Part shown: in pieces, positions 27,413 through 32,556 of the stretch
How positions within the stretch are numbered: position 1 is the stretch's first letter
Layout of the letters: each line of letters starts with the position of its first letter
Assembly: GCA_016874535.1 (NCBI GenBank)
Contig: VGUA01000005.1
Coordinates: 1-57,933, forward strand
Length of the DNA stretch: 57,933 nucleotides
Source: Gammaproteobacteria bacterium
Lineage (GTDB): Bacteria; Pseudomonadota; Gammaproteobacteria; Ga0077536
Direction: 5' to 3'
The notes under the pieces: generated by a model
What the model was told of the DNA's origin: nothing
What the model saw: only the letters and a program-made list of their open reading frames with translations
The model's database searches: none
Translations under genes and position numbers: made by a program

Positions 27413-29196
27413 CAGGGGCGGGCCGTGCGCGGCAGCGTCCAAGCGATGATTTCGTCCCCCACCGGATAGCCATAGAGACTGTTGCCTCCTGCGACCACGG
27501 CAACGAACTGCTCATCCGCCACGGCATAGCTGACCGGCGGTGCATTCACGCCGGCCTCGGTGGTGTCTTCCCACAGACGCGCACCAGTCTTTCCGTCAAA
27601 AGCGACGAAGCGACCGCGGCCCTCGCCAGTGAAGACCAGTCCGCTCCGGGTGGCGAGCACGCCGCCCACCATGGGCTGATCGAGTTTCACCTGCCATCGG
27701 AGGCTGCCATCGGCCAGATTCAAGGCGCTCAAGAGCCCGTGATGTGCGCCTTCCACCGGCTTGAACATCGTGTAGCTGTCCCAAGCCTGGCCCGCCCGCT
27801 CCGGCAGCTTGCGCACGAAGTAGTCGGCGGGCCCGTGGCTGCCGGCGATGAAGACGCTGCTGGCCGTCTCATCCACCGCCACGGGGGACCAGGAACAGGC
27901 CCCGAGCCCGGAGGGCGAAATGCGCACGCCTGCCTCGGTCGGCGGCGTGAACAGATTTTCCTGGGGCGCGAAGGGCGCGGAGCGATACAGGAGTCGACCC
28001 GTCGCGCGCTCGTGCACGAAGAACCAGCCGAGCTTGGACGCCTGGCCCACGGCTTCCACGGGCTTGCCTTCGTGCTGCATGGTGAACAACACCGGCGGGC
28101 TCGCGACATCGTAGCCCCAGCGGTCGTGCGGGACCTGCTGCCAGGCCCACACGAGTTTCCCCGTTTGCAGTTCGAGCGCGACCAGACTCACCGTGTGCAG
28201 GTTGTCGCCGGGTCGGGTGGCATCATCCATCTGCGGCGCCGGATTGCCGGTGCCGATGAAGATGAGCCCTCGCGCGCGATCCACCGCGGGCGTGGTCCAG
28301 ACCGAGCCTCCGCCGAACTGCCAGCTTCCAGCATAGCGCTCGCTGCGCGCGCGTTCGCCGGCCAGATCCCGGTTGAGGGTCTCACCGTAGGCCGTGGTCG
28401 GTGTGAACTGTCCCGTCCAGTTGGCATCCGGCACGGTATGCCAACGCCAGCGCTCCTCGCCGGTCGCGGCATCCAGGGCCACGATGAAGCCGCGCAGCCC
28501 GAGCTGCTCACCGGCCAAGCCCACCACGGACATGGAGGTCTCGCCGTTCTCTCGGGTTTCCACGTGCAGGCCGTAGGCCGTGCCGGTCACGCCCACCAGC
28601 ACCAGATCGTCCACCACCTGCGGCGCCATGTTGGCGCTGTAGCCGGTCTGGCCGGTCTGCGCGCTGCCGGCGAGGCCGAGCGACTGATCAGGCGCGGCCC
28701 CGGTCAGGAGCTCGGAGAGCTTTTCCGTGGCCACCGGCTGATGATCGATGAGCGGGCTTTCCCAGATTTTCTTGCCAGTGGTGGCATCGAGGGCTACCAC
28801 CCGCGAGTCGATGGTAGCCATGAAGACCCGCCCGTCCGCCACCGCCACTCCGCGATTGGCCGGTCCGCAACAGACATCGCGCGTCGTCAGCACATGTTCG
28901 TAGCGCCAGCGCTCGGCGCCGGTGGCCGCATCGAGCGCGAGCACATGATTGAACGGCGTGGAGACATACATCACTCCTTCGCGTACGACCGGCGAGGCCT
29001 GGAAGGACGCCTTGATGCCGGTCTTCACGCTCCAGCGGCGCGTGAGCTGCGTGACGTTCTCCGGCTTGATGTCGACCAGCGGCGAGAGTCGCTGGTTTGA
29101 ATAGTCGAGCCCGTAGAGCGGCCAGTCGTCCGCGGCGTGCGCCGTGGCGAGGAACACCGGAAACAGCAGCAGGCTCATGCTCAGGAAAGTTCTCAT
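27412..29196 (-). CDS. PQQ-dependent dehydrogenase (beta-propeller quinoprotein), atypical active site
   Basis: Signal peptide, DWPLYG...RLSPL..I...NV, W-motif repeats (ALDAATG..RW), vicinal CC (VCCGPANRG), GGGSVWT, GTGNPAP and HDRWGYD. Confidence 0.9.
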   Translation of the reverse strand: MRTFLSMSLLLFPVFLATAHAADDWPLYGLDYSNQRLSPLVDIKPENVTQLTRRWSVKTGIKASFQASPVVREGVMYVSTPFNHVLALDAATGAERWRYEHVLTTRDVCCGPANRGVAVADGRVFMATIDSRVVALDATTGKKIWESPLIDHQPVATEKLSELLTGAAPDQSLGLAGSAQTGQTGYSANMAPQVVDDLVLVGVTGTAYGLHVETRENGETSMSVVGLAGEQLGLRGFIVALDAATGEERWRWHTVPDANWTGQFTPTTAYGETLNRDLAGERARSERYAGSWQFGGGSVWTTPAVDRARGLIFIGTGNPAPQMDDATRPGDNLHTVSLVALELQTGKLVWAWQQVPHDRWGYDVASPPVLFTMQHEGKPVEAVGQASKLGWFFVHERATGRLLYRSAPFAPQENLFTPPTEAGVRISPSGLGACSWSPVAVDETASSVFIAGSHGPADYFVRKLPERAGQAWDSYTMFKPVEGAHHGLLSALNLADGSLRWQVKLDQPMVGGVLATRSGLVFTGEGRGRFVAFDGKTGARLWEDTTEAGVNAPPVSYAVADEQFVAVVAGGNSLYGYPVGDEIIAWTLPRTARP

Positions 29197-29209
29197 CCGA
29201 TGCGGCTCC

Positions 29210-29578
29210 TCAAGGTTTCGGCCAGGGTGCGAAGAGCAGGCATACCGGCCCGTCTATGCAGCGCGTGCGATGGCCGCGGCCTTCGATATCCGCGGGCAGG
29301 AACACGCCACCACGGCGCCAGCGCCGGGTTTCGCCATCGGTCGTCTCCACCTCGAGGATGCCGTCCAGCACCACCACGATCTGGCGGGCCGGCGCCTGGT
29401 GCCAGTTCTGCGAGAGGCCGGCCGGCAATTGCACGAACTGCACGGCAGGCGAGGCCCAGGGCGATGAATGGGTGATGGTGTGACCGAAACCGTCCTCGCG
29501 CGACTGATCCAGCGGAATGTCGATTTCGGCGAAGCGCGAGCCGCCGTCCGGCGTGGCATGGAATGTGATGACCTTCAT
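29210..29578 (-). CDS. Cupin-fold protein
   Basis: WHQAPARQIVVVLDGILEVETTDG and DIEGRGHRT cupin motifs. Confidence 0.8.
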   Translation of the reverse strand: MKVITFHATPDGGSRFAEIDIPLDQSREDGFGHTITHSSPWASPAVQFVQLPAGLSQNWHQAPARQIVVVLDGILEVETTDGETRRWRRGGVFLPADIEGRGHRTRCIDGPVCLLFAPWPKP

Positions 29579-31506
29579 GCGTGCTCAATCTCCCGTTGGG
29601 TGGCGCGTGCCTCCACATGGTAGTCCGCAAGTCTCGCTTCGCGCGTCATGCGGTGGAAATCGACATTGCGATAAGGTGAATTCACCACGATTCGCCCGCG
29701 CGAATTGCGGTAATAGGTCGTCATGCCCTCGTGCGCCCACACCATGTTGGCGTGCGCGGCATCCACTCCCGCGCGATAGGCTTCGAAGACTTCGGTCCGG
29801 CAGTCCACGGCACCAATACCCTCTTTGGTCATCCGGCGCAGCATGTCCATGATGTAGCGCATCTGCATTTCCGCCACCACCATGAAACTGCCCCCGTGGC
29901 CGGGCTGCAGATTGGGCCCGTACATCATGAAGAAATTGGGAAAGCCCGGCACCACGGTGCCGAGATAGGCCGCCGCATTGTCACCTTCCCAGAAATCCCG
30001 GAGCTTCCGGGCATCGCGCCCGAAGATTTCATAGGTGTTGAGGAAATTGAGCACATCGAAGCCGGTGGCGATCATCAGGACATCCGCTTTGTGGCGTGTG
30101 CCATCTGCTGTGACCACATGGCCTTCGTCCACTTCGGTGATGCGCGTGTCCACCAGCTGCACGCGTGGGTTCTGCAGCATTCGGTACCAGCCATTGTCCA
30201 TCAGCATGCGTTTGCCGAAGGGTGGATAGTCGGGTAACACCTTGGGCAACAGATCCTGGCGATCACCCAACTGCTCCTGGATATAGCGCGTGTAATAGGC
30301 GCGATGCGCGTCATTGGTGGCGTTGAGCGAGCGCTCCGGATAGGGCCAGGCTGGATCCTTCTGCAGGGTGGCGTGCACGCGATCGTTGATGGTCCAGCCG
30401 AGACGCACGCGATACCAGGCCTGATAGAGCGGGACTTCCTGGATGAGGAAACGCAGGGCCTCCGGCACGGATCTGCGAAATTGCGGGAAGGGCGCTGCCC
30501 AGTGCGGAGAGCGCTGAAAAATGGTGAGTGATTCCACCGCGTGCTGGATTTCGGGACCCACCTGCATGCAGCTCGCGCCGTTGCCGATGATGGCAACATG
30601 CTTGCCCGCCAGATCGATGCCGTCGGGCCACTCGGCGGTATGGAAGCAGGGACCTGCGAACGAGGAGAGGCCCGGAATCCGCGGCCACACCGGCGGATTG
30701 AAAATCCCCGCGGCGCTGATGAGGACATTGCCACGCAAAATCTCCGCGCTGCCATCCGGCCGCGTGACCGTGACGAGCCAGGCTTGGCTTTCGGCGTCGT
30801 AGCGGGCCGTCTCCACCCGTGTGCTGCAGCGGATATGGGGTGCGAGGTCGAATTCGCGCGCCACATGCTGCAGGTAGGCATGCAGATCGTCCCGCAGGGC
30901 GTAATACGTCGGCCAGTCGTACCTGGCGAAAGAGAAGGAGTAGAGGTGGTTGGGCGTATCGACGCCCGCGCCGGGATAGCGGTTCTCCTGCCACACCCCG
31001 CCCGCGACCGGGTTCTTCTCCAGCACCGTGAACGGGATGCCCGCCGCCTTCAGGTTGACCGCTGCACAGAGGCCTGAGACTCCGGCACCGATGACCAGCA
31101 CACGGAAACCTTCCGGCACGGGGATGCGTTCCGTGCTGGGTGGGCGGTGCCCGAAGAGGTCCCTGGTGAACTCCCCGTATTCCTCGGGCACGGGCTCACC
31201 CATGGCCACGGACAACATCTCCACCAGCTGACCGGGGCTCGGGTCCGGAATGGCCACCGGCCTGCCGGCACGCCAGGCCAAGATGGCCTCCAGCGCTGCG
31301 GCGCGGATCTCTTCCTGAATGGCCTCGGGCAGACCACCGGTGTCGTTGTCCCCCAGGCCCACGCTGCGGGAGGGCCGATAAGGGGGCTGCAGCCAGCGCT
31401 CTTCACCGGTGAGCTGGGCCACGACCATGAGCAGAGTCGGGATATTGGCCACCGCAATGCCGGCGGCGAAGCGGTCCCTCATGAGGGCTTCCGGGACGTG
31501 GTTCAT
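29575..31506 (-). CDS. Type I Baeyer-Villiger monooxygenase (4-hydroxyacetophenone monooxygenase-like, N-terminally extended)
   Basis: GAGVSG, GGVWQENRYPGAGVD, the BVMO fingerprint FAGPCFHTAEWPD, GNGASCMQ and ATGF. Confidence 0.9.
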   Translation of the reverse strand: MNHVPEALMRDRFAAGIAVANIPTLLMVVAQLTGEERWLQPPYRPSRSVGLGDNDTGGLPEAIQEEIRAAALEAILAWRAGRPVAIPDPSPGQLVEMLSVAMGEPVPEEYGEFTRDLFGHRPPSTERIPVPEGFRVLVIGAGVSGLCAAVNLKAAGIPFTVLEKNPVAGGVWQENRYPGAGVDTPNHLYSFSFARYDWPTYYALRDDLHAYLQHVAREFDLAPHIRCSTRVETARYDAESQAWLVTVTRPDGSAEILRGNVLISAAGIFNPPVWPRIPGLSSFAGPCFHTAEWPDGIDLAGKHVAIIGNGASCMQVGPEIQHAVESLTIFQRSPHWAAPFPQFRRSVPEALRFLIQEVPLYQAWYRVRLGWTINDRVHATLQKDPAWPYPERSLNATNDAHRAYYTRYIQEQLGDRQDLLPKVLPDYPPFGKRMLMDNGWYRMLQNPRVQLVDTRITEVDEGHVVTADGTRHKADVLMIATGFDVLNFLNTYEIFGRDARKLRDFWEGDNAAAYLGTVVPGFPNFFMMYGPNLQPGHGGSFMVVAEMQMRYIMDMLRRMTKEGIGAVDCRTEVFEAYRAGVDAAHANMVWAHEGMTTYYRNSRGRIVVNSPYRNVDFHRMTREARLADYHVEARATQREIEHA

Positions 31507-31599
31507 GGGCAAGAGGCTCCTGGCTGATTGCCACTCAGGGTCGAGGGCCTCCGGATGGTAACAGGGCGCCACCGGCTGAGATGTCGGATTCTTCCTGAG

Positions 31600-31627
31600 G
31601 GAACTGGAGCGGGGCTTAGCACTCTAA
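31600..31627 (+). promoter_or_regulatory. Candidate sigmaE (RpoE/AlgU-type) promoter for rpoH
   Basis: GGAACTG at 31600-31606, 16-bp spacer, TCTAA at 31623-31627, versus the consensus GAACTT-N16/17-TCTRA. Confidence 0.6.
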
Positions 31628-31642
31628 TCGGCCGAGTGCTAA
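31616..31642. promoter_or_regulatory. CIRCE element (HrcA operator)
   Basis: TTAGCACTC-taatcggcc-GAGTGCTAA: exact match to TTAGCACTC-N9-GAGTGCTAA, 29 bp upstream of the rpoH ATG. Confidence 0.95.
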
Positions 31643-31671
31643 ACTTCGACACAAGGAATTTGGAGGAGGCT

Positions 31672-32556
31672 ATGCAAGCCATGACAGTCGCTCTGGACAC
31701 ACTGCTCGTTCCGACCGGGTCGCTCGAGTCCTATGTGGCCGCGGTGAACAAGGTCCCCATGCTGAGCGAGGCCGATGAACAGGCTCTGGCCCGGCGTTTT
31801 CAGGCAGATCAGGATCTGGATGCAGCCCGCCAGCTGGTGCTTTCCCACCTGCGTTTCGTGGTGCGGGTAGCCCGGGGTTACAACGGCTACGGCTTGGCCC
31901 AGGCCGATCTCATCCAGGAGGGCAATATCGGCCTCATGAAGGCCGTCAAGCGTTTCAACCCTGAGCTCGGCGTGCGACTGGTCTCTTTCGCCGTGCACTG
32001 GATCAAGGCGGAGATTCACGAATTCATCCTGCGCAACTGGCGCATCGTGAAGGTCGCCACCACCAAGGCGCAGCGCAAGCTCTTCTTCAATCTGCGCAGC
32101 GCACGCCAGCGCCTCGGCTGGATGAGCAGCCAGGAAGTCGAGGCTGTCGCCAAGGATCTGGGCGTGGAGACGCACGAGGTGCTGCTCATGGAAGAGCGGA
32201 TGAATGCCCATGATCAGGCCTTCGATCCGGCCGTGGAGGGAGAGGATGACGATGACGATCTCTCACCCTCCGCCTACCTTTGCGACACGCGCTTCGAACC
32301 CGTGCAGCAGCTGGAGAGGCTGGAGGAAGAATCGCGCGGCCAGGAAAACCTCGGCGATGCCCTCGCCGCGCTCGATGCACGCAGCCGCGACATCGTCACC
32401 AGTCGTTGGCTGACTGAGCCCAAGATGACCCTGCAGGAACTGGCAGACAGGTATCAGGTCTCCGCGGAGCGCATCCGTCAGCTGGAGAACAACGCGATGA
32501 AAGCCATGCGGCGCGCGCTGGGCGTGAACCTGCTGCCGGCACCCGCGCAAGCCTGA
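31672..32556 (+). CDS. rpoH: RNA polymerase sigma-32 factor
   Basis: [23 protein letters not shown], RpoH box QRKLFFNLR and [12 protein letters not shown] ggaggagg before ATG 31672. Confidence 0.98.

Follow-up and report, generated by a model that had tools for sequence, protein, structure and literature searches.

The DNA analyzed here (the window) is a stretch of 57,933 nt, contig C5 of a 3.08 Mb genome of 63% GC content assembled in 189 contigs. On its forward strand it carries rpoH (31672–32556), encoding a sigma32 of 294 amino acids that scores 402 bits against TIGR02392 rpoH_proteo (cut-off 323.1) and 416.6 bits against NF005143. A Shine-Dalgarno sequence GGAGG was read on the same strand at 31662–31666, 5 nt 5' of the ATG at 31672. 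The neighboring gene (29575–31506, reverse strand) is divergent and flavin monooxygenase-like, with weak family matches; it lies outside the element and serves as context only. Its start was read from the sequence at 31506, and the whole rpoH control region therefore comprises 165 nt. Unlike most Gammaproteobacteria there is no ftsE-ftsX 5' of rpoH within 26892–31671, where the divergent monooxygenase-led cassette is found instead, so that all control of rpoH is squeezed into these 165 nt. A weak terminator-like hairpin CCGGCTGAGATGTCGG followed by a T-run ATTCTTCC is located just 5' of the rpoH promoter at 31572–31587. No co-directional gene lies 5' of it, and two relatives with 95% identity (L127 and L128) have a hairpin like it. 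Possibly it is what remains of the ftsX terminator, ftsX being the gene normally 5' of rpoH.

The sequence from 31600 reads directly as GGAACTGGAGCGGGGCTTAGCACTCTAATCGGCCGAGTGCTAAACTTCGACACAAGGAATTTGGAGGAGGCTATG. It contains a CIRCE, the operator of the HrcA repressor, at 31616–31642 (no strand assigned), with the left arm at 31616–31624, the spacer at 31625–31633 and the right arm at 31634–31642. The element is TTAGCACTCTAATCGGCCGAGTGCTAA, i.e. TTAGCACTC-N9-GAGTGCTAA, and matches the consensus at 18/18 positions. Its end is 29 nt from the rpoH start codon at 31672. With three or fewer mismatches allowed, the window contains no other match, and 100 dinucleotide shuffles produced none. An exact CIRCE before rpoH was the core of the original prediction, and is borne out both by the match itself and by the assignment of the downstream ORF as RpoH by TIGR02392.

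The repressor gene is also present. The source genome has a full-length hrcA, scoring 225.6 bits against PF01628 and 335 bits against TIGR00331 (cut-off 197; model positions 1–337 of 338 covered). It heads an hrcA-grpE-dnaK operon, and nadK is divergent from it. Only two CIRCEs were found in the genome at three or fewer mismatches, one at rpoH and the other directly 5' of groES-groEL on contig C3 (44871–44897, or 1501–1527 of L002), with one mismatch. The search for hrcA and for further CIRCEs proposed with the original prediction has thus given a positive answer on both counts. The same genome scan revealed no CIRCE at the hrcA-grpE-dnaK operon, and inspection by eye of the sequence 5' of hrcA gave no convincing match to a sigma32-type promoter. 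The groESL promoter adjoining its CIRCE can be read as sigma32-like (CTTGAAA-N14-CCCTACTA) or, equally well, as sigma70-like (TTGAAA-N17-TACTAT). Several other genomes (L088, L089, L094, L100 and L101) instead have a CCCCATAT box just 3' of the groES CIRCE, an arrangement in which the −35 and −10 of a sigma32 promoter may flank the operator.

The CIRCE at rpoH overlaps a sigmaE-type promoter. On the forward strand the −35 element GGAACTg was read directly at 31600–31606 (GGAACT being 31600–31605). The −10 element TCTAA is at 31623–31627 on the same strand, with its TC taken from the CIRCE left arm and its TAA from the spacer. The GGAACT-N17-TCTAA promoter originally proposed to overlap the CIRCE is therefore there in the sequence at these positions. 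In Escherichia coli the sigmaE promoters have −35 GGAACTT and −10 TCAAA or TCnnA with a strongly preferred spacer of 16 nt, and a discriminator of 5–6 nt after the −10 (Rhodius 2006, PMC1312014). Counted in the E. coli style our promoter is GGAACTg-N16-TCTAA, and so has the preferred sigmaE spacing, with G at the seventh position of the −35 where the consensus is T. The 5–6 nt discriminator places the predicted start site at 31633–31635 on the forward strand, in agreement with the earlier estimate. Over both strands of the 3.08 Mb genome GGAACT-N16-18-TCTAA has a single occurrence, at rpoH, against the 0.11 that the counts of its two words would predict. A relaxed genome scan for a sigmaE regulon left 11 filtered sites from 179 relaxed matches, among which there was no recognizable regulon. 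Such a scan is too noisy in a 63% GC genome; it was discarded and the strict count kept.

The genome encodes an RpoE orthologue (285.7 bits to TIGR02939, cut-off 236). The gene order nadB / rpoE-rseA-rseB-degP / lepA was read from the positions of the ORFs and their N-terminal translations rather than from family scores. The sequence GAACTT-N17-TCTAT lies upstream of this rpoE itself. A second ECF-type sigma gene is found on contig C7 (39342–39866), about 5 kb from hrcA; its score against TIGR02939, 71 bits, is lower than the cut-off.

The other side of the CIRCE provides a further putative promoter element, which was overlooked in the original prediction. The TGCTAA of the right arm together with the following ACT creates TGCTAAACT (31637–31645, forward strand), an extended −10 element of the sigma70 type. 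Its hexamer TAAACT has 4/6 matches to that of sigma70, including A2 and T6, and is directly preceded by TGn. The corresponding start site is predicted about 6–8 nt after the hexamer, at 31651–31653 on the same strand. A sigma70 promoter scan of 31350–31800 reported none; it misses TGCTAAACT because the two hexamers total 8/12 matches. Considering the source genome by itself, TGCTAAACT is plausible as a promoter element, but not strong.

We have examined rpoH loci across the Gammaproteobacteria. Eighty loci were fetched by protein similarity, and a subset of 50 genomes was checked for hrcA. A CIRCE with three or fewer mismatches lies just upstream of rpoH in 19/80 loci. Within the 50-genome subset hrcA is present in 17/19 genomes that have a CIRCE at rpoH, compared with 2/31 that do not. 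The two genomes with the operator and without hrcA are metagenome bins. Most hrcA-bearing genomes have exactly two operators, at groES and at rpoH. CIRCE-like sites are found in 159 of 201 genomes (one for each of 200 genera across the class, plus the source genome), about four fifths. Among Gammaproteobacteria with hrcA, a CIRCE is found at rpoH as regularly as at groESL. The original prediction had CIRCE acting usually at groESL or dnaK; groESL is indeed a target, but the role of rpoH was understated.

Some genomes depart from the two-operator pattern. There is one clear exception, the Thiomargarita genome G020: hrcA is present and both of its groES operons (L102 and L103) carry a CIRCE, but rpoH has none at two or fewer mismatches. 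Albibeggiatoa (G045) was taken for another genome with hrcA and no CIRCE at rpoH. This was resolved on finding the CIRCE at the second of its two rpoH copies (L077 and L104), where there is no GGAACT in register. Genome G222 also has two copies of rpoH, and both have the GGAACTT-CIRCE signature (L119 and L124). A third CIRCE occurs in a minority of the genomes: L093 (G011:C45:52542–52568), L125 (G087:C23) and L121 (G148:C49). In L093 and L125 this is upstream of hrcA, i.e. direct autoregulation.

The relative positions of the sigmaE-type promoter and the CIRCE were compared in an unbiased, CIRCE-anchored set of 40 rpoH loci, comprising 20 from the similarity fetch (including the source locus) and 20 from a search of relatives. 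Nineteen groES-type CIRCEs from the same genomes provided the comparison set, and GGAACT was counted where at least 5/6 positions matched. GGAACT starts at −16 from the CIRCE in 27/40 rpoH loci and between −17 and −15 in 30/40, although these loci are related and 12 are congeneric, so the counts overstate independence. At any other offset from −40 to −6 it was found in 0–2 of the 40 loci. The in-register GGAACT is present in none of the 19 groES-type CIRCEs against 30/40 of the rpoH type (p = 1.4e-8). The spacer differs in the same manner. Its first base is T in 30/40 rpoH-type CIRCEs and in 3/19 of the groES type, and the third base is A in the same proportions (30/40 versus 3/19). This T-n-A, together with the TC of the left arm, makes TCTnA, a sigmaE −10. 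The groES CIRCEs are preceded by promoters of the CTTGAnn-N14-CCCTATtA type. A clear in-register GGAACT is missing in 10/40 CIRCE-bearing rpoH loci, showing that the sigmaE input is not universal.

Within the source genus the CIRCE is kept in all 12 other species. In ten of these GGAAC(T/C) is found in register; the remaining two have ggatgt (L135) and gaatat (L138) in its place. TCTAA is present in 10 of the 13 species, including the source, while the rest of the spacer and the bases between the motifs vary. One congeneric rpoH homologue (L130, G258:C5:18778–19641) contains an in-frame TGA, for which a sequencing error, a pseudogene or recoding could be the explanation.

A class-wide scan from which signature sites were picked by eye gave 19 sites, of which 18 lie directly 5' of an rpoH homologue. 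The 19th is L121, which precedes an ORF read by eye from its N-terminus as NAD kinase. Given that nadK is the divergent neighbor of hrcA in the source genome, we infer that this is a site of hrcA autoregulation, although hrcA itself was not found in the L121 locus. Judged from these comparisons of sequence, the overlap of CIRCE with a sigmaE-type promoter at rpoH is a conserved design.

A sigmaE-type promoter is also found 5' of rpoH in 22/61 loci lacking the CIRCE, using a strict filter. These include members of the Enterobacterales and Pasteurellaceae, Idiomarina and Marinobacter, among others. The presence of such promoters in CIRCE-less lineages makes the sigmaE input look ancestral, with the operator superimposed upon it. 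Some rpoH-type CIRCEs with a variant left arm TTGGCACTC (for example L007 and L106–L109) contain TGGCAC, the −24 element of sigma54, and the rpoH of E. coli has a sigma54 promoter. This idea is not applicable to the source locus, where the left arm is TTAGCACTC.

Comparison of the same loci strengthens the assignment of the extended −10 element. A T three nucleotides 3' of the right arm is present in 39/40 rpoH-type CIRCEs but only 6/19 of the groES type (p = 8e-8). Because the opposite half of the palindrome has no counterpart of this T, its conservation is directional and not explained by the inverted repeat. The right arm and the next three nucleotides of the rpoH-type sites read GAG-TGC-TAAnnT, i.e. 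an extended −10 element TGnTAnnnT. In hrcA-less genomes TGnTAnnnT lies exactly 8–9 nt after the sigmaE −10 in 8/22 rpoH loci, the same register as in the source. Against a background of 6% per 30-nt window the enrichment is significant at p = 3e-5. The loci include those of Pseudomonas, Porticoccaceae, Marinobacter, Oleiphilaceae and Oceanospirillaceae. The retention of the extended −10 in lineages that lack hrcA indicates a role independent of HrcA, as expected for part of a promoter. Three hrcA-less Pseudomonas rpoH loci (L029, L030 and L035) have CAGTGCTAGACT or GGTGCTACACT about 8 nt after the sigmaE −10. The sequence resembles what would be left of a CIRCE right arm that had been kept for use as an extended −10, suggesting loss rather than gain of the operator.

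Taking these data together, we consider it likely that the CIRCE of 27 bp functions as an HrcA operator interwoven with two core promoters of rpoH, both of which HrcA gates. The left arm of the CIRCE would lie inside the spacer of the sigmaE-type promoter and supply the TC of its −10 element. The operator spacer would supply the rest of that −10 and hold the start site at about 31634. The TGCTAA of the extended −10 promoter TGCTAAACT, with a start at about 31652, would come from the right arm. HrcA, kept active by free GroEL, would then occupy the sigmaE-type promoter from approximately −18 to +9, and the same HrcA dimer would cover the whole extended −10 of the second. Expression of rpoH would be shut off by steric exclusion of RNA polymerase from both promoters. 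The dependence of HrcA on GroEL is proposed by analogy with the GroEL-titration model of Bacillus subtilis, in which unfolded protein inactivates HrcA. Unfolded proteins would titrate GroEL, so that HrcA falls off. Transcription of rpoH by the sigma70 holoenzyme could then proceed at a basal level, becoming stronger once sigmaE is set free by envelope stress. More sigma32 would mean more chaperone synthesis, including that from groESL, itself a predicted HrcA target, and the restored GroEL would re-arm HrcA and close the loop. With HrcA repressing both the gene for sigma32 and a target of sigma32, this would be a feed-forward arrangement with negative feedback.

The original prediction had sigmaE and HrcA form an AND gate at rpoH within a three-layer cascade. 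The idea of a cascade finds good support in the comparative evidence. Its components have been found, i.e. hrcA, the rpoE cluster and the −35 element in fixed register, yet a strict gate fits less well with the conserved extended −10. Such a gate would require the sigmaE-type promoter to be the only promoter of rpoH, with TGCTAAACT conserved for another reason. The short intergenic region of 165 nt in which a consensus scan detects no sigma70 promoter is in keeping with this, as is the uniqueness of the sigmaE motif in the genome. Yet the non-palindromic terminal T of TGCTAAnnT is found in 39/40 rpoH loci and is absent from most groES CIRCEs (present in 6/19), the same extended −10 follows the sigmaE −10 by 8–9 nt in hrcA-less lineages, and the quarter of CIRCE-bearing rpoH loci that have no GGAACT must still express rpoH. 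We therefore regard the strict gate as rather unlikely. As the terminal T of the TGCTAAACT-type element is conserved in 39/40 loci and the element persists without hrcA, sigmaE is probably not the sole route to transcription of rpoH. An AND gate would be a limiting case, with sigmaE as the sole activator; the comparative sequence evidence favors a gate on two promoters. A different doubt concerns which sigma factor reads GGAACT...TCTAA, which might be another ECF sigma, such as that encoded on C7, and not the RpoE orthologue. A second ECF-type gene does exist in this genome, and −35 elements containing AAC are generally recognized by several ECF groups. Yet motif, spacing and target gene all equal the pattern of the E. 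coli sigmaE promoter P3 of rpoH (PMC1312014), and a matching motif lies 5' of the genome's own rpoE. The motif is moreover kept across many families, while accessory ECF sigmas are usually lineage-specific. Reading by a different ECF sigma is thus quite improbable.

Alternatively, the palindrome might work mainly in RNA rather than as an operator on DNA, forming a stem-loop in a longer 5' leader transcribed from an upstream promoter and thereby affecting the stability of the mRNA. CIRCE reportedly has a role in mRNA stability in B. subtilis, and there is the weak hairpin with its T-run upstream at 31572–31587. Against this, the short region contains no detectable promoter further upstream, and the CIRCE at rpoH tracks the presence of hrcA. 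The conserved directional elements put the starts inside or after the palindrome; since the first predicted start falls within the operator spacer, transcripts would lack part of the stem, which favors action on DNA. We give this possibility hardly any weight. Even less can be given to a chance or fossil palindrome without present function. An 18/18 match that none of 100 shuffles reproduced, an intact hrcA, and conservation in 12/12 congeners and in many families make that very unlikely. One published observation does count against our model of a gate on two promoters. On nitrogen starvation of Xylella, hrcA is induced and groESL repressed, and rpoH is induced two-fold (PMC3224663); simple co-repression by HrcA would not predict the induction of rpoH.

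For hrcA-bearing Gammaproteobacteria in general the proposal would be that the CIRCE is dual-use, standing in register with two ancestral tandem promoters, and that GroEL-HrcA is a master gate on sigma32. We place this broader reading at about even chances. If it is true, about 46 bp integrate basal expression with signals of envelope stress and of folding stress in the cytoplasm. Chaperone feedback on sigma32 would then be transcriptional, replacing or adding to the post-translational control of the E. coli type, and lineages that lose hrcA (Pseudomonas and its relatives) would keep CAGTGCTAGACT only as a −10 element. The textbook account of sigma32 control derives from E. coli, which lacks HrcA. 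In bacteria that have hrcA, the two classic heat-shock systems would be wired in series at the rpoH promoter, and not in parallel. The fused elements provide a compact and easily mutated test bed, in which single bases separate the inputs of what would be three signals at one promoter.

The arrangement at this locus can be compared with several known systems. E. coli sigma32 is restrained after transcription by chaperones and FtsH, and not by a promoter-bound repressor. The closest parallel to the sigmaE-type promoter is E. coli rpoH P3, the founding sigmaE promoter, which has sigma70 promoters nearby; the gene, the −35/−10 motif and the spacing GGAACTT-N16-TCnnA are all the same (PMC1312014). 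Enterobacterales rpoH loci in our sample have TGAACTT-N16-TC..A. E. coli and its relatives, including our control genomes, have neither hrcA nor CIRCE, unlike the source genome.

The operator corresponds to the CIRCE/HrcA system of groESL and hrcA-grpE-dnaKJ, for which B. subtilis is the paradigm and which is found in many proteobacteria. The same inverted repeat of 9-N9-9 is used. As in that paradigm hrcA is present, the site lies at the promoter or start of a heat-shock gene, and groESL also has a CIRCE. Unlike it, the target here is a sigma factor gene, rpoH, and not a chaperone operon, and the hrcA-grpE-dnaK operon of the source genome has no CIRCE. Moreover, the operator at rpoH overlaps a sigmaE-type promoter, whereas the groES CIRCEs abut promoters of the CTTGAnn-N14-CCCTAT type, which are sigma32/sigma70-like.

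CIRCE before rpoH is said to have been predicted in some beta- and gammaproteobacteria by Permina and Gelfand in 2003. For Geobacter sulfurreducens an exact CIRCE was predicted at −51 of rpoH (Rodionov et al. 2004, PMC545781), in a paper that cites Permina and Gelfand 2003 for the beta-, gamma- and epsilon-proteobacteria. The statement in the original prediction that such sites had already been proposed computationally agrees with this. The likeness of G. sulfurreducens to our locus is close, as both have an exact operator some 50 nt 5' of rpoH and groESL as another CIRCE target (PMC545781). The table of Rodionov et al. (PMC545781) gives only the site and its position, and no register with sigmaE or extended −10 elements. 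A paper on Xanthomonas sigma factors had nothing on the rpoH promoter, and among the papers covered by our full-text searches none describes or tests a fixed-register fusion of sigmaE promoter, CIRCE and extended −10 at rpoH. From its sequence, the present locus appears to be a real and well-supported further example of the predicted CIRCE-rpoH circuit. The interlocked register of the sigmaE promoter, the CIRCE and the extended −10 is apparently undescribed, and is a detail of that circuit rather than a new kind of system.
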